64,000 bases of DNA from Bacteroidaceae bacterium (lineage in GTDB: Bacteria > Bacteroidota > Bacteroidia > Bacteroidales > Barnesiellaceae_A): assembly GCA_017410245.1 (NCBI GenBank), contig JAFQRE010000042.1, positions 136,536 to 200,535 of the forward strand. Reading direction: 5' to 3'. Each line of letters starts with the position of its first letter. Positions within the stretch are counted from its first letter, which is position 1. Below are positions 38,824-46,409 of this stretch, in pieces. A model generated the notes under the pieces. The model saw nothing but the letters and a program-made list of their open reading frames with translations. It did not search any database and was not told the origin of the DNA. The position numbers and the translations under genes were made by a program.

Positions 38824-39462
38824 TTATTTCTTGGTATTCTCTACAGGCTTGTTCTCTTCGCCACCAAGTTGTTTGTAATAGAAAAGCAATATGATGGCTA
38901 CTCCCACACAGATGGCCGAGTCGGCTATGTTGAAGATGGGTTGGAAGAACTCGAAGTACTCACCACCCACAAATGGTACCCAATCGGGCCAGTAGAAAGA
39001 GAATAGTGGGAAGTAGAGCATATCTACAACTCTACCATAAAAGAACGGTGCATAACCGCCACCCTCTGGGAAGATAGTAGCTACAGCAGGAGGCATGGGA
39101 GCATCGAAGATGAGTCCGTAGAACATACAATCTATGATGTTGCCTATGGCACCGGCCTCGATGAGTGCCACGCAGGCAATGAAGCCCATAGTGTATTGTG
39201 GGCGACGACAGATATACCATAATGCGTAGCCCAAAAATCCCGATGCTATGATGCGAAATATGGTAAGGAATAGTTTACTGCCCAATTCCATGCCAAAAGC
39301 TGCACCATTATTCTCGATAAATGCTATCTTAAACCAACTTGTCACATCGATGCTCTCGCCTATATACATATTGGTCTTGACGGCAATCTTTACACATTGG
39401 TCTATGAGTAATATGGCAAAAATGATAATGGTAGCCCAATGCCCGCGCGATAATCTTTTCAT
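38824..39462 (-). CDS. lspA: lipoprotein signal peptidase II
   Basis: 212 aa with FIENNGAAFGM and VVDMLYF...FNIADSAI motifs and 4 TM segments. Confidence 0.9.
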   Translation of the reverse strand: MKRLSRGHWATIIIFAILLIDQCVKIAVKTNMYIGESIDVTSWFKIAFIENNGAAFGMELGSKLFLTIFRIIASGFLGYALWYICRRPQYTMGFIACVALIEAGAIGNIIDCMFYGLIFDAPMPPAVATIFPEGGGYAPFFYGRVVDMLYFPLFSFYWPDWVPFVGGEYFEFFQPIFNIADSAICVGVAIILLFYYKQLGGEENKPVENTKK

Positions 39463-39566
39463 GTAGGTTGTTATGTGTTCGGTTTATTTTTTTCAATAAT
39501 ACTGCAACCACATACTGTCTGCATCGCAGTGATACAGGTAAGTATGTGGTTGTATGGGGTAGTGTG

Positions 39567-39947
39567 TTATTTTACACCTTTGTTCTTGGCCTCAACGCTC
39601 AGTGTAGCGTGGGGTACAGCCATCAAGCGCTCTTTGGGTATCAGCTTGCCGGTTTCGCGGCATATACCATAGGTCTTATTCTCGATGCGAATAAGCGCAG
39701 CTTGCAGGTGTTGTATAAACTTCATTTGGCGCTCTGCAAGTCGGCCGGCCTCTTCTTTCGAGAGTGTATTGGCTCCCTCTTCAAGTACCTTGAATGTAGG
39801 TGATGTATCGGTAACATCGTTGCCATCGTTATTCATGATGGCAGATTTGAGACTTTCATAGTCCTTCAATGCCTTGGCGAGTTTCATATTGATTACCTCG
39901 CGGAACTCTTCCAGTTCGGCATCTGAATAGCGTGTTTTCTCAGCCAT
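39567..39947 (-). CDS. DksA/TraR-family zinc-finger regulator
   Basis: Start at MAEKTRYSDAELEEF (ATG at 39947). It has a coiled-coil region and the C-terminus YGICRETGKLIPKERLMAVPHATLSVEAK. It lies directly downstream of ileS. Confidence 0.75.
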   Translation of the reverse strand: MAEKTRYSDAELEEFREVINMKLAKALKDYESLKSAIMNNDGNDVTDTSPTFKVLEEGANTLSKEEAGRLAERQMKFIQHLQAALIRIENKTYGICRETGKLIPKERLMAVPHATLSVEAKNKGVK

Positions 39948-40023
39948 AGTCGTTTGTTTTATAAGGTTAAATAATTTATGTAACAAATCGCTGATGTAAC
40001 GGTTCGAAAGGGTAAAGACTTTT

Positions 40024-43000
40024 TTAAGCCTTTACCACTTTAACCATCAACTTGAATGTGTCGAAATCGAGTTCGGTAACATTCTCACCGGCTTCTACAG
40101 CATCTACAGTGAAGCTCTCGGCAAGTACTTGATGTGCCATATATTCGCGATACTCGGCAATGGCGGCATCAGTCTCTTCGTTGTGTGCTATTGTTACATG
40201 TATCTTGTCGGTAATTTCAAAACCGCTTGTTTTACGTATGTTTTGTATGCGGTTGATCAACTCGCGAGCATAGCCTTCGCGACGCAACTCATCGGTGATG
40301 GTAACATCGAGGGCTACTGTGAGGCGACCTTCGTTGGCAACGAGCCAGCCGGGAATATCTTCCGACAATATCTCTACATCGGCCAATTCTACCACTGCTG
40401 CATTGCCTTCTATATCGAATGTGAAAGAACCATTCTTCTCAAATGCAAGAATATCTTCTTGACTCATCTCGGTAATGGTTGCGGCAAGTTGTTTCATCAT
40501 CTTGCCATAACGTTGTCCAAGGGCTTTGAAGTTGGGTTTCACACGTTTTACTACTACACCGGCTGCGTTATCGACAAACTTCAACTCTTTGACATTTACC
40601 TCGGCAAGGATAAGCTCTTTCATTGCCTCGATGTGGTTGCGTTGAGTTTCATCTACAACAGGTACCATCAGTGTGCTGAGGGGCTGACGTACTTTGATAT
40701 TGACCTTACGGCGCAAAGCCAATACCATTGATGTGATGTCTTGAGCAATGCGCATGCGCTCCTCCAACTCGTTGTTGGTTTCGTTTGCTGCGGGGAATTG
40801 GCTCAAGTGTACCGATTTATTGTCGCGACCTGTGGCAGTTGTAAGGTCGGTGTACAAGCGGTCGGCATAGAAGGGTGCGATAGGTGCCATGAGGCGTGCA
40901 ATTGTCTCAAGACATGTGTAGAGTGTTTGATAAGCCGAGAGCTTGTCCTCATTCATTTCGCCACCCCAGAAACGCTTGCGGTTGAGGCGAACATACCAGT
41001 TACTCAAGTTGTCGTTTACAAAGTCCGAAATGGCGCGACCGGCACGTGTAGGCTCATAGTTGGCATAGTAGCCATCTACCTCTTCTATCAATGAGTTGAG
41101 CAGTGAGATTATCCAGCGGTCGATCTCGGGACGTTGAGCTACAGGTATGATGGGCTCTGTTCCGGTGAAGCCATCTACATTGGCATAGAGAGCAAAGAAA
41201 GAGTATGTGTTGTAGAGTGTGCCGAAGAATTTACGACGCACCTCTTCTACACCTTCCAGGTCGAACTTGAGGTTGTCCCAAGGCGATGCATTGGTAATCA
41301 TATACCAACGTAGGGGGTCGGAACCATACTTCTCGATGGTCTCAAAGGGATCTACAGCATTGCCAAGACGTTTCGACATCTTGTTGCCGTTTTTATCGAG
41401 TACAAGACCGTTTGAGATAACGGCTTTATATGAGATGTTGTCAAATACCATTGTAGAGATGGCGTGCAAGGTATAGAACCAACCACGAGTTTGGTCCACG
41501 CCCTCGGCAATGAAGTTGCAGGGGAATACATCGCCTCGCTCAAATGCCTCCTTGTTCTCGAAGGGATAGTGTATCTGGGCATAGGGCATAGCACCCGAGT
41601 CGAACCATACGTCGATAAGGTCGCTTTCGCGGCGCATAGGTTTACCACTCTCCGATACGAGCATGATGTCATCGACATAAGGACGGTGCAAGTCTATCTT
41701 CTCATAGTTTTCCTTGGTATATACACCCGGCTCGAAACCACGCTCTTTATAGGGGTTGCTTGCCATCACACCGGCGGCTACAGCTTTCTCTATCTCATTG
41801 TAGAGGTGCTCTACCGACTCGATGCATATCTCTTCATCGCCCTCTTCGGTACGCCAAATGGGAAGCGGAGTACCCCAATAGCGCGAGCGGCTCAAGTTCC
41901 AGTCGTTAAGGTTTTCCAACCACTTGCCAAAGCGACCTGTACCTGTCGATTCGGGTTTCCAATTGATAGTCTTGTTGAGGGCTATCATGCGGTCTTTGGC
42001 AGCAGTAGAACGGATAAACCAGCTATCCAACGGATAGTAGAGTACGGGTTTGTCTGTTCGCCAGCAGTGAGGATAGTTGTGTACGTGTTTCTCCATCTTG
42101 AAGGCCTTTTGCTCGGCTTTCATCTTCATGCAGATATACACATCGAGGCTCTCGGCTGCCGATGCGGCTTGCTCGTCGTACTTGCCATCGATAGTAAATT
42201 GAGGATCGTAGGCATTCTTTACCCAGCGACCTTGATATTCATTATAAAGCTCCTCGTTGATGCAAGCCTTTACAAATTGCTCGTCAAGTTCGTCCATGGT
42301 ATAGAACTTACCTGTCAAATCAACCATAGGACGAGTTTCACCGCGCTTGTTGATCATGAAGAGTGAGGGAATACCCGCAGCACGTGCTACAAAAGCGTCA
42401 TCGGCACCAAAGGTGGGAGCAATGTGTACGATACCGGTACCATCTTCGGTAGTTACATAGTCACCGGCTATCACGCGGAATGCTTTGTCCGATGCCTCTT
42501 CCCAGTTGCCTTCTTCATCTACAGTAACAGGCTTAACCCAAGGCAACAATTGCTCATAGTGCATGCCTACGAGGTCGGTACCTTTGTATTCGCCTACGAC
42601 TTTGAAGGGAATGAGTTTGTCACCGGGCTTGTAGTCTTCGAGAGCCAAGCCTTCTGCTTTCTTGTTGAAGTGGCTGTAGAGTAGGGGTTTAGCCAATACT
42701 ACAGTAATCTTCTCGCCATTGTAGGCGTTGTATGTTTGCACAGCTACATACTCAATCTTGGGGCCAACGCACAATGCTGTGTTTGAGGGAAGTGTCCAAG
42801 GTGTAGTTGTCCATGCTATGAAGTAGGGTGTACCCCATTGAGCCATTTCGGGCTTGGGATCTACCATCTTGAATTGTCCTACTACGGTGAGGTCTTTTAC
42901 ATCGCGGTAGCAACCGGGTTGGTTCAACTCGTGTGAACTGAGGCCTGTACCGGCAGCAGGCGAGTAAGGCTGAATTGTGTAGCCCTTATAAAGCAAGTTC

Positions 43001-43512
43001 TTGTTATAGAGCTGTTTCAAGAGCCACCACAAAGTCTCTATATAACGATTGTCGTAGGTGATGTAGGGATCTTCCATATCAACCCAATAACCCATCTTGT
43101 GGGTAAGGTCTTCCCACTCGTGAGTATATTTCATCACGTCTTTGCGACAAGCTGCATTGTACTCTGCTACACTGATGGTTTTGCCTATATCTTCTTTGGT
43201 AATGCCCATAGCCTTCTCAACACCCAACTCAACGGGTAGTCCGTGTGTATCCCAACCGGCCTTGCGCATTACTTTGTAACCTTTCATTGTCTTGTAACGG
43301 CAGAAAATATCTTTGATAGAACGTGCCATTACGTGGTGAATACCGGGCATACCGTTGGCCGAAGGAGGACCTTCATAGAAAACGAATGAGGGGCAACCTT
43401 CGCGTGTCTCTATACTCTTACGAAAAACATCGTTTTCGTCCCATGTTTTCAATACCTCTTTATTGATGTCCGAGAGGTTAAACTTGGTATATTCGGTAAA
43501 TTTCTTACTCAT
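40024..43512 (-). CDS. ileS: isoleucine--tRNA ligase
   Basis: 1162 aa. Class I motifs PSANGMPGIHH (HIGH-type) and KMSKR, with the long type-2 IleRS architecture. Confidence 0.98.
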   Translation of the reverse strand: MSKKFTEYTKFNLSDINKEVLKTWDENDVFRKSIETREGCPSFVFYEGPPSANGMPGIHHVMARSIKDIFCRYKTMKGYKVMRKAGWDTHGLPVELGVEKAMGITKEDIGKTISVAEYNAACRKDVMKYTHEWEDLTHKMGYWVDMEDPYITYDNRYIETLWWLLKQLYNKNLLYKGYTIQPYSPAAGTGLSSHELNQPGCYRDVKDLTVVGQFKMVDPKPEMAQWGTPYFIAWTTTPWTLPSNTALCVGPKIEYVAVQTYNAYNGEKITVVLAKPLLYSHFNKKAEGLALEDYKPGDKLIPFKVVGEYKGTDLVGMHYEQLLPWVKPVTVDEEGNWEEASDKAFRVIAGDYVTTEDGTGIVHIAPTFGADDAFVARAAGIPSLFMINKRGETRPMVDLTGKFYTMDELDEQFVKACINEELYNEYQGRWVKNAYDPQFTIDGKYDEQAASAAESLDVYICMKMKAEQKAFKMEKHVHNYPHCWRTDKPVLYYPLDSWFIRSTAAKDRMIALNKTINWKPESTGTGRFGKWLENLNDWNLSRSRYWGTPLPIWRTEEGDEEICIESVEHLYNEIEKAVAAGVMASNPYKERGFEPGVYTKENYEKIDLHRPYVDDIMLVSESGKPMRRESDLIDVWFDSGAMPYAQIHYPFENKEAFERGDVFPCNFIAEGVDQTRGWFYTLHAISTMVFDNISYKAVISNGLVLDKNGNKMSKRLGNAVDPFETIEKYGSDPLRWYMITNASPWDNLKFDLEGVEEVRRKFFGTLYNTYSFFALYANVDGFTGTEPIIPVAQRPEIDRWIISLLNSLIEEVDGYYANYEPTRAGRAISDFVNDNLSNWYVRLNRKRFWGGEMNEDKLSAYQTLYTCLETIARLMAPIAPFYADRLYTDLTTATGRDNKSVHLSQFPAANETNNELEERMRIAQDITSMVLALRRKVNIKVRQPLSTLMVPVVDETQRNHIEAMKELILAEVNVKELKFVDNAAGVVVKRVKPNFKALGQRYGKMMKQLAATITEMSQEDILAFEKNGSFTFDIEGNAAVVELADVEILSEDIPGWLVANEGRLTVALDVTITDELRREGYARELINRIQNIRKTSGFEITDKIHVTIAHNEETDAAIAEYREYMAHQVLAESFTVDAVEAGENVTELDFDTFKLMVKVVKA

Positions 43513-43653
43513 ATTAGTCTGTTATTTACTCGTTCGATAAAAATATCTGCGAAGATACAAAAAAATAGTATATCTATCGCAATTGTTTTATAATTATTAC
43601 ATTTATTACTTAATTTGTTCTGTTTAAGTTGTAGCTTACGGAGTTATAGCCTT

Positions 43654-44337
43654 TCAACCTACACCTAAATCGGTGTTTTCTATGAGCACTTCTATGCGTT
43701 CGTCATCGACAAGCATCGGGTATATTTCGTTGCGAAACCACCGGGCCAATTCTACATCTTGCTTGACAGCTGTGCTGTTGTTGTTAAATACATTTACACT
43801 GGTATATTCAAAGTGTCGGCGTGCCGTAGCTATGTCGTTTACTATACGCTGGGTGCTATCACCTATGGTACAGCACAGCAGACACACACCATCGAAGTAC
43901 TTGGCCACATCTTCGGCTGTTACGTCGAGAGGAATGCCTTTGTTCCATTGTTGGCGTAACGCTCCATCGAAGCTCTCTATACCGCATCTAAACTTCACTT
44001 GTGCCGGGGCAAACTGTCGGGCAAACTCCTGCAACTTATGGCGATACATATAGTGCATCTCAAACCATATAGTCTTTATACCTTTCTCTACGACAATCTG
44101 TTGCAACAGCGATATGGTGTCGTGGTCGAGTTCTATACCCGAGCCTGAGTTGATGACATCGAGTACGCCATGCTTGCCACTTACTTGCGATAGTACCTCA
44201 CGATTGATGGTATAGGGTGTTGTACTTGTGTCGGTGTGGTAGTCGCAGAAGGTGCAACGGCCCCAGCGACAACCCGTACCTTGCAAGAGTACAAATTCAC
44301 GTGGGAACTTCTTGTCTATCTGTGCGTAACGTATCAT
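43654..44337 (-). CDS. small radical SAM protein with Cx4Cx2C cluster (Elp3/RaSEA-like subgroup?)
   Basis: 227 aa. GC23RWGRC28TFC31DY departs from the usual Cx3Cx2C spacing. There is a 4-nt overlap with the upstream YhhQ-like gene. Confidence 0.65.
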   Translation of the reverse strand: MIRYAQIDKKFPREFVLLQGTGCRWGRCTFCDYHTDTSTTPYTINREVLSQVSGKHGVLDVINSGSGIELDHDTISLLQQIVVEKGIKTIWFEMHYMYRHKLQEFARQFAPAQVKFRCGIESFDGALRQQWNKGIPLDVTAEDVAKYFDGVCLLCCTIGDSTQRIVNDIATARRHFEYTSVNVFNNNSTAVKQDVELARWFRNEIYPMLVDDERIEVLIENTDLGVG

Positions 44338-45011
44338 GGCTTGGTGGTGTGTAGATGGTTTTTAACCCAGCGTATTACGATATATGCCATAGGTGTACCC
44401 ATCGAAGCCTCTATCATGAGTTTCGATATATATTGAAATACCAGCATATACAGCAGGTCGTGCGTGCTCACAACTCCGGCAAAGGCTATCAGTACAAACG
44501 GAACAGTATCGAACAGGTAGCCTACTGCCGAGCTGCCAATGGTGCGCACCCATAGATGCTTGCCTTGCATGCGTTGTTTGATGTAGTCCATGACCCATGC
44601 ATTCGACAACTCTCCACAGAGGAAGCCTGCCAATGAGCCTAACACAATGCGAGGAACGTAGGTAAACACATTGTTATAGGCCATAGCACTATCGGCTAAG
44701 TAGTGGGGCGAGGGTAGCCACACTCCTACTTGTGTGCATACGACAAGGAGTATATTGCACACCAAGGTGAGGTATATGATGCGCTTGGAAGTGCGAAATC
44801 CCCATATCTCGGTGATTACATCGCCCAGCATATAGGCAAATGGGAAGGTTATTGTGCCGGCATCGAAGTAAAACAGGTCAAAGAGGCCTATTACTTTTAC
44901 AGCCATAATGTTCGATACGAGATACAGTGTTACAAACAACGCTGTGACAATCATCAGTGGCCAGTGATTGACTTCTCGGTTTTTTAAAGGGTTTTCCGAA
45001 ACCTTGTTCAT
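44334..45011 (-). CDS. YhhQ/VUT-family queuosine-precursor transporter
   Basis: 225 aa with 6 predicted TM segments. FPFAYMLGDVITEIWG resembles the conserved YhhQ (DUF165) motif. Confidence 0.7.
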   Translation of the reverse strand: MNKVSENPLKNREVNHWPLMIVTALFVTLYLVSNIMAVKVIGLFDLFYFDAGTITFPFAYMLGDVITEIWGFRTSKRIIYLTLVCNILLVVCTQVGVWLPSPHYLADSAMAYNNVFTYVPRIVLGSLAGFLCGELSNAWVMDYIKQRMQGKHLWVRTIGSSAVGYLFDTVPFVLIAFAGVVSTHDLLYMLVFQYISKLMIEASMGTPMAYIVIRWVKNHLHTTKP

Positions 45012-45164
45012 TGTATATCAGTTGTTTAAATTTTGTTGGCGCGATAGTATCTCCATCGCATCTGCCTTTGGTGTGGCGCAAATTTACTACATTCTTTCTA
45101 CATAGCATTATTTTGTAACCATTTTTTGTAACTTTGCAGTTGTATATACCTATACAGAGATATT

Positions 45165-46409
45165 GTGAAAGTAGTACTCATAAATCGCAGCGATATTACC
45201 GGTGGAGCGGCTGTCTTTACCTACCGGTTGATGCAGGCATTGCGCAATGCAGGTGTCGATGCCACAATGTTGGTGTGCGACAAGAAGTGTAGCGATGCAC
45301 ACGTTGTCGATTATTCACAACCCATGCTCGACCGATTTCACTTCTTGGCCGACCGGTTGCAGATATTCTGTAACAACCGATACTCCCGTAGCAATCTCTT
45401 TAAGGTCGATACTGCTTGTTGGGGGCGTGACATCAGCAATCACCCTTTGGTGCGAGAGGCCGATGTCATCATGCTCAATTGGATAAACCAAGGCGCATTG
45501 TCGTTGCGTAGCATCGAGAAGTTGTGCCTATTGGGCAAGCCTGTGATATGGACTATGCACGATATGTGGAACTGTACAGGTGTGTGCCATCATGCCTATG
45601 ACTGCAGTCGCTACAAGCAATCCTGTGGCTGTTGTCCCTACTTGTCATCATCGTCGATGGGTGACTTGTCGCATACTACATGGTGCAAGAAAAACAACCT
45701 ATACAAATTGCCCAATCTCCACTTTGTATCTGTGAGCAATTGGTTGGCCGAGAAGTGCCATGAGAGTAGTTTGTTGCATGCCAAGCCTATCTATGTTATA
45801 CCCAATACCATGCCGGTAGAGACATTTGGCTATCAGCGTATGCCCAATGCCCATTTTGATATACCCGACAATTGTGCAGTGCTTGCCATGGGTGCAGCGC
45901 GACTCGACGACCCTGTCAAGGGATTTGATATGCTCATTGATGTTACACATTATATAAAAGAGAACCTGCCACATCTTGCCCATCGCCTTCATCTCATTCT
46001 CTTTGGCGATATACGCGATGCCTCGTTGTTACAGCAGATAGCTATCCCTCATACCCATGTGGGTAGGGTAGAGCCCGATGCTGTCAATGGCATCATGCAA
46101 CATGCCGATGTGGTGCTATCTACATCGCTGTACGAGTCGTTTGGAGGTACACTTATCGAGGGTCAGGCATCGGGTTGTTTACCGGTCACCTTTGGCAACG
46201 GTGGTCAAACCGATATCGTAGATCATCGGCGAACAGGATACGTAGCCCAATACCGTTCTATTGAAGATTTTGCTCATGGTATCGAGTGGGCTGTTGATGC
46301 AGGTGTAGGTCGTTTGTTATTGCATAATGAGGTTGTAGCGCGTTTTGCACCTTCGGTTGTGGCCTGGAGGTATATCGACCTATGTAACCATTTTATCGCA
46401 ACTCTTTAA
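45165..46409 (+). CDS. glycosyltransferase, GT4-like (GT-B fold)
   Basis: 414 aa, GTG start. GGAAVF at the N-terminus and the Ex7E-type motif YESFGGTLIEGQASG. Confidence 0.8.
   Translation: MKVVLINRSDITGGAAVFTYRLMQALRNAGVDATMLVCDKKCSDAHVVDYSQPMLDRFHFLADRLQIFCNNRYSRSNLFKVDTACWGRDISNHPLVREADVIMLNWINQGALSLRSIEKLCLLGKPVIWTMHDMWNCTGVCHHAYDCSRYKQSCGCCPYLSSSSMGDLSHTTWCKKNNLYKLPNLHFVSVSNWLAEKCHESSLLHAKPIYVIPNTMPVETFGYQRMPNAHFDIPDNCAVLAMGAARLDDPVKGFDMLIDVTHYIKENLPHLAHRLHLILFGDIRDASLLQQIAIPHTHVGRVEPDAVNGIMQHADVVLSTSLYESFGGTLIEGQASGCLPVTFGNGGQTDIVDHRRTGYVAQYRSIEDFAHGIEWAVDAGVGRLLLHNEVVARFAPSVVAWRYIDLCNHFIATL

Follow-up and report, generated by a model that had tools for sequence, protein, structure and literature searches.

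A probable two-gene queuine salvage module, transporter QPTR and radical SAM enzyme QueL, in gut Bacteroidales

Results

The QPTR and radical SAM genes overlap by four nucleotides

The stretch of DNA analysed here (the window, 64,000 nucleotides) comes from a Bacteroidaceae bacterium whose genome assembly (G000) has a size of 2.53 Mb and is 99.3% complete; G and L numbers are our own designations of genomes and loci. As listed in Table 1, two genes lie in tandem on the minus strand of the window, the first encoding a transporter of the QPTR (YhhQ/COG1738) type and the second a radical SAM protein, which is assigned to QueL below. The second gene starts with an ATG at 44337-44335 that lies over the TGA of the first (44336-44334), and the resulting ATGA overlap of the two reading frames is consistent with translational coupling. 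Both open reading frames, their overlap and a Cx4Cx2C motif instead of Cx3Cx2C had been described in the initial annotation. Coordinates, strand, ATGA and the motif CRWGRCTFC at C23/C28/C31 all agree with our own reading, in which residues 22-33 of the radical SAM protein are GCRWGRCTFCDY with the spacing C23-x4-C28-x2-C31.

Table 1. Features of the QPTR-QueL locus in window coordinates
Feature	Position	Strand	Remarks
Candidate Bacteroidetes-type -7 box TAAATTTG	45079..45086	minus	upstream of QPTR, 68 nt from its start codon
QPTR (YhhQ/COG1738) gene	44334..45011	minus	225 aa; ORF contains FPFAYMLGDVITEIWG
ATGA stop/start overlap QPTR-QueL	44334..44337	minus	direct sequence reading
QueL radical SAM gene	43654..44337	minus	227-aa ORF
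Cx4Cx2C codons, C23-R-W-G-R-C28-T-F-C31	44245..44271	minus	holds the radical SAM [4Fe-4S] cluster
ileS, DksA/TraR-type zinc-finger gene, lspA	38824-43512	minus	downstream of QueL; ileS 1162 aa

The profile searches bear out the earlier recognition of the transporter as a YhhQ/VUT-family protein. Pfam Vut_1 matched it with 152.9 bits (cutoff 27.2; E 1.1e-44) over profile positions 1-152 of 152, and TIGR00697 with 115.7 bits (cutoff 50.95). It is a member of the same family (COG1738, PF02592) as E. coli YhhQ and C. trachomatis CT140, with no ECF energising components. It differs from E. coli YhhQ, however, in falling far under the E. coli-type equivalog model NF008406 (50 vs 252 bits). QPTR is single-copy in the window genome.

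Upstream of the pair, TAAATTTG is the only minus-strand match of the pattern TANNTTTG between the QPTR start and a divergent GT4 glycosyltransferase gene. The pattern occurs 88 times in the window (55 +/- 7 expected), and the box is a putative promoter element by its match to the consensus. No Rfam family, and hence no known preQ1 riboswitch, matched 43000-46000 at E <= 1; control by a preQ1-I element as in C. difficile is therefore absent here. The genes downstream of QueL show the classical ileS-lspA order with the DksA-like gene in between, an arrangement that stands beside QueL only in same-genus relatives. The minus strand showed no terminator between QueL and ileS, and transcripts from QueL may therefore read through into ileS and on to the DksA-like gene and lspA.

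The radical SAM protein is assigned to the QueL family

A phmmer search against the PDB with the 227-aa protein gave 6P78_A ('Queuine lyase') as the sole significant match (E 8.6e-46, 159 bits, residues 1-227 vs 23-250), while every other PDB sequence had E >= 0.39. 6P78 is the queuine lyase of Clostridium spiroforme in complex with SAM and queuine. Its cluster motif, CIWGKCSFC, has a spacing identical to that of the window protein. The AlphaFold2 model of the window protein, for which the input alignment comprised 37 diverse homologues, reached a pLDDT of 97.2, and its best Foldseek match was again 6P78 (TM 0.95/0.94, rmsd 1.4 A, 231 columns, 38% identity). The remaining radical SAM structures, Elp3 among them (TMq 0.54-0.61), gave TMq values of at most 0.61.

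The QueL family counts 330 representatives (50% clustering, 1.84 billion proteins). Residues E14, L18, C23, C28, C31 and K133 are invariant in 37 diverse full-length family members, and the window protein carries all of them; C23, C28 and C31 are also invariant in 10 Bacteroidales QueL sequences. On the strength of the full-length match to 6P78, the fold and the complete set of invariant residues, the radical SAM protein is, as judged from sequence and model, a member of the QueL family and an orthologue of the characterised queuine lyase. It would be expected to share the activity of clostridial QueL, namely the SAM-dependent conversion of queuine to preQ1. Full-length homology, fold, the Cx4Cx2C motif, transporter linkage and a salvage genotype, the latter two of which are presented below, were all found.

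Four more cysteines, C118, C152, C155 and C156 (in KFRCGIESF and GVCLLCCT), are invariant in the 10 Bacteroidales sequences. Among them, only C152 is shared by 6P78; C118, C155 and C156 are absent from it and occur in just a few other family representatives. An auxiliary Fe-S site formed by these four residues was considered and rejected as unsupported, because the extra cysteines, although Bacteroidales-wide, are not invariant in the 37 family representatives.

RaSEA is the archaeal archaeosine-forming radical SAM enzyme, which acts with its partner ArcS on preQ0-lysine in tRNA. The initial annotation had pointed to a kinship of the window protein with Elp3 and RaSEA and had proposed an enzyme acting on an imported 7-deazaguanine base, or on 7-deazaguanine within tRNA or DNA. 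An enzyme of the RaSEA/Elp3 kind that modifies preQ0 or another 7-deazaguanine in tRNA or DNA, e.g. to an archaeosine-like product, is favoured by two results: the RaSEA model TIGR01210 is the only NCBIfam match of the protein (E 1e-6), and Elp3 is among its distant structural matches. However, the TIGR01210 match reaches 28.2 bits (cutoff 212.15) and covers protein residues 15-136 only (model positions 17-153 of 313), and the match to QueL is stronger by about 40 orders of magnitude. RaSEA has about 310 aa, whereas the window protein is a 227-aa homologue of a small-molecule lyase, with a minimal radical SAM core and without a nucleic-acid-binding domain. Moreover, preQ0 synthesis is impossible in the window genome and its TGT is of the tRNA preQ1 type, as described in the next section. 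The membership test effectively refutes an RaSEA-like enzyme, which we regard as very unlikely here, and the assignment to QueL is retained.

What stands of the kinship with Elp3 and RaSEA is a distant sequence relation in the N-terminal half of the radical SAM core, and not membership of the RaSEA family. Similarly, the part of the earlier proposal that concerned 7-deazaguanine metabolism and an imported free base held, but the enzyme turned out to be an already characterised one. The modification of 7-deazaguanine within tRNA or DNA had to be given up for an orthologue of QueL (6P78) that misses the RaSEA cutoff. Because the enzyme, its structure and the pathway were published in 2019, the presumed novelty of the enzyme does not hold. 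The protein had also been said not to be QueE, in line with the NCBIfam scan, where no QueE model matched it at E <= 0.1. A profile assignment to an unrelated radical SAM family, named in the initial annotation as an outcome that would speak against its proposal, was not obtained from NCBIfam, the sole match being the weak one to RaSEA, and the fold match is to QueL (TM 0.95). In Table S6 of PMC11130926, QueL is placed under the Elp3/MiaB/NifB-like core domain IPR006638.

Neither Pfam nor NCBIfam holds a QueL-specific model, and QueL is for this reason recorded as a 'hypothetical protein' or as a sub-threshold radical SAM protein. Pfam Radical_SAM scored 17 bits on the window protein, below threshold, and the homologues in public database records are named only 'hypothetical protein'.

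The genome has the genotype of indirect queuine salvage

An inventory of the que and tgt genes had been recommended in the initial annotation. Profile searches of the genome detected a preQ1-type tgt, two copies of queA, and queG, and queC, queD, queE, queF and queH were not found. For queC, there were just short PP-loop N-terminal partial matches in unrelated ATPases. Neither queD nor queH had a match in the genome; for queE, TIGR03365 found nothing genome-wide, while the B. thetaiotaomicron QueE was detected as a control; and the lone sub-threshold genome match for queF was FolE. The IU-nucleoside hydrolase family, which includes QueK, was likewise without a match in the genome. A Qng1 profile search returned zero matches in any genome, the control included.

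The TGT pocket motifs of the window genome are DEC and GGLAVGE. According to PMC11570991, GGLAVG marks the preQ1-inserting type of TGT and GG[LS][AS]G the queuine-inserting type; by its motifs, the TGT of this genome is of the canonical preQ1-specific type. The genome thus needs preQ1, has no synthesis of it and cannot directly insert queuine, which is just the situation that QueL resolves. This gene set matches the genotype published as 'indirect queuine salvage'.

The two QueA paralogues differ in form. One (G000:C27:56345-57382, L006) is canonical, with 346 aa and 424 bits; the other (G000:C12:39387-40568, L007) has 453 aa with an N-terminal extension and insertions and scores 323 bits. Two QueA copies are also listed in Bacteroidales rows of Dataset S1 (PMC11130926), and their presence seems to be common in Bacteroidales.

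QPTR stands upstream of QueL in relatives

QueL was detected in 11 of the 14 species genomes of the window's family (one genus), in 3 of 201 genomes from an even sample of the order, and in 1 of 401 genomes from a phylum sample, that one being the window's own. A scan for relatives with a search pattern built from a 9-sequence alignment, taking one genome per species, gave 537 relatives, and the best 80 of the 537 loci were analysed. Among these 80, 79 are from Bacteroidales gut MAGs or isolates or are without a taxon label, and one is labelled Fibrobacter sp. This last locus, L102 (JAAYXQ010000135.1), is a 2.1-kb contig of a MAG, with 58% and 61% identity to the window proteins; its label could reflect a binning error or horizontal transfer.

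In the sampled relatives, QPTR was directly upstream of QueL on the same strand at 13 of 13 loci. Among the best 80 of 537, the same order and strand were seen at 77 species loci, with a distance of at most 60 nt in 68. Of the 90 loci with QPTR upstream, 72 have a QPTR-QueL junction of -8 to +17 nt according to a stop-codon scan; a few outlying values are artefacts of the scan, as confirmed for L083. The flanks (ileS and the GT4 glycosyltransferase gene) are shared with the closest relatives only. Because 13/13 and 77/80 loci keep QPTR upstream, the pairing is not due to chance. The initial annotation had taken a lack of conserved linkage to yhhQ as a result that would count against its proposal; the linkage is there in both sets of loci.

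These counts also bear on the possibility that the two genes are adjacent by accident and that the radical SAM gene encodes an unrelated activating enzyme or maturase. The sub-threshold Pfam score (17 bits) and the 'hypothetical protein' records would allow such a reading, but the linkage to QPTR is kept (77 of the best 80 of 537) while the flanks vary, the distribution of QueL complements that of de novo synthesis, and the fold is identical to that of QueL. The conserved linkage and the fold already refute accidental adjacency, which we consider extremely improbable, and we hold to a QueL enzyme coupled to its transporter.

In three Bacteroidales MAGs (L069:2442-4973, L082:2353-4926 and L040:2219-4973), QPTR and QueL are split by an insertion of 2.6-2.8 kb. 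The insert encodes a GH43 + Laminin_G_3 protein in two of them, and a T9SS-sorting-tail protein plus a 746-aa protein without Pfam match in the third. Alternative partners of QueL were sought where QPTR is missing or distant and were dismissed, the intervening genes (GH43, T9SS-tail) being unrelated. Candidates for natural QPTR-QueL fusions were discarded too: the one in L083 proved on direct translation to have a TAA stop and is an artefact, and the long matches P0207 and P0158 are without a Vut_1 domain.

All six QueL-positive genomes tested (G000, G204, G208, G209, G088 and G168) are without QueC. The first four have PP-loop fragments only and no full-length QueC; G088 and G168 belong to other families and also lack it. 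Four QueL-negative genomes were tested, and three of them have a full-length QueC, among them G104 and G212 of the same genus (both 99% complete), where it scores about 250 bits. Every QueL-positive genome whose TGT was read has GGLAVGE. QueL and the de novo pathway are mutually exclusive among the tested genomes, within one genus too; as these genomes are related, the exclusion is to be read as a pattern, not as a statistical test.

QueL-linked QPTRs and their likely substrate

Identity to the window QPTR is 61-85% for the QPTRs linked to QueL. In the congeners G104 and G212, which use de novo synthesis, the QPTR gene stands at another locus and adjoins an SDR dehydrogenase gene, and the identity of its product to the window QPTR is only about 32%. 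In the order sample, QPTR identity to the window protein is bimodal: 70-71% in two QueL-positive genomes, 53-55% in G180 and G181, which are without QueL, and at most 37% in the rest. Such values support the placement of the QueL-linked QPTRs in a clade of their own.

The solitary QPTR gene of G180 (L108:3030-3722 on G180:C8) is flanked by a GATase-like gene and dprA, and its product is 55% identical to the window QPTR. G180 has neither QueL nor QueC, and its TGT (L111) has the Val-retaining motif GGVAVGE in place of GGLAVGE; we regard this genome as that of a probable preQ1 salvager. Since a related QPTR occurs there together with a GGVAVGE TGT and without QueL and QueC, the clade of the window QPTR may also carry preQ1.

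QPTR substrates are described as varying, from preQ0/preQ1 in E. coli to queuine in C. trachomatis (PMC11130926). Similarity networks were the only means of separating QPTR types in PMC11570991, and there were exceptions; the paper gives no known sequence signature for the substrate. Given that QPTR specificity is known to vary and that the window QPTR is coupled to QueL, it would most naturally carry queuine rather than, or besides, preQ1.

The module could also comprise a QueL-family enzyme and work on something other than free exogenous queuine: QPTR would import only preQ1 or preQ0 and QueL would recycle queuine from tRNA turnover, or QueL would cleave epoxyqueuine or nucleoside Q. This would accord with a QPTR specificity that is not readable from sequence (PMC11570991), with the window-like QPTR of G180 that has no QueL, and with an identity of just 38% to the characterised enzyme. 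Internal recycling needs a Q nucleosidase, however, and there is no QueK in the genome; the Qng1 search was empty as well, which is a weak test as its control was empty too. Further, the coupling of transporter and lyase at 77 of 80 loci (best 80 of 537) makes most sense if the transporter supplies the lyase with its substrate, and the modelled structure is a near-perfect match to queuine-bound 6P78 (TM 0.95). A substrate other than imported queuine is improbable in our estimate, and queuine import followed by cleavage remains the preferred reading.

Discussion

The queuine lyase QueL was reportedly described by Yuan et al. in 2019 (PNAS 116:19126). Papers citing that work present it as an enzyme of the radical SAM type that turns the queuine base back into preQ1, so that a canonical bacterial TGT can use salvaged queuine, which is known as 'indirect salvage' (PMC11130926, PMC11570991, PMC11477304, PMC12632869). 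In the genome studied here, QPTR and QueL very probably form a two-gene queuine salvage module that leads from queuine import and cleavage to preQ1, through TGT and QueA/QueG, to Q-tRNA. The QPTR permease would import a queuosine precursor, most likely the free base queuine, from the gut environment. The co-translated QueL, using SAM and the [4Fe-4S] cluster bound by Cx4Cx2C, would then cut the cyclopentenediol group from queuine and release preQ1. This preQ1 would be put at position 34 of tRNAs with GUN anticodons by the preQ1-specific TGT and completed to queuosine by QueA and then QueG. As the organism cannot make preQ1, the module would be its route to Q-tRNA.

Compared with clostridial QueL (C. 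difficile CD1684; 6P78), the window protein shows the same minimal core of about 230 aa, the Cx4Cx2C motif, full-length homology and the fold. In both cases, the gene lies beside a transporter for a Q precursor, in genomes without queDECF and with a preQ1-type TGT, QueA, and QueG or QueH. The window protein is only 38% identical, however, and its host belongs to Bacteroidota as opposed to Bacillota. In C. difficile, the operon queK-qrtT-queL stands behind a preQ1-I riboswitch (PMC11477304). The window system differs from it in that the partner of QueL is the secondary transporter QPTR/YhhQ instead of the ECF S-component QrtT, QueK is missing both next to the pair and from the genome, no ECF component stands at the pair, and a preQ1 riboswitch was undetected at 43000-46000.

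The presence of QueL and QPTR over gut and oral genomes is tabulated in Datasets S1 and S2 of PMC11130926. What is added here to the papers citing Yuan et al. 2019 is modest: the host lineage (small-genome gut Bacteroidales), a QPTR partner without QueK, and a QPTR clade of its own. A known pathway is thus placed in a new host lineage, and the knowledge of the enzyme or the pathway itself is unchanged. There is nevertheless a practical side for annotation. Genomes that rely on this salvage will look incomplete and be misclassified by automated metabolic reconstructions, a gap that a dedicated QueL model would fix.

Gut Bacteroidales are typically queuosine producers. The small-genome lineage examined here appears, from its gene content, to have swapped de novo synthesis for the compact QPTR-QueL cassette, which would therefore make it a consumer of queuine. 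Animals depend on diet and microbiota for the micronutrient queuine, as they cannot make it themselves, and knowing which gut bacteria make it and which use it shapes models of host-microbiome competition, as discussed in PMC11130926.

It is more tentative, and in our estimate falls a little short of an even chance, that the QPTRs linked to QueL in gut Bacteroidales form a transporter clade apart whose specificity has shifted to queuine. Queuine-transporting QPTRs are documented in intracellular pathogens, namely C. trachomatis and partly Bartonella. If the proposal is true, the shift to queuine transport would have taken place in free-living gut commensals and not in intracellular pathogens, and a two-gene cassette, free of both riboswitch and nucleosidase, would replace the whole preQ1 pathway. 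Such commensals would then compete directly with their host for free queuine.
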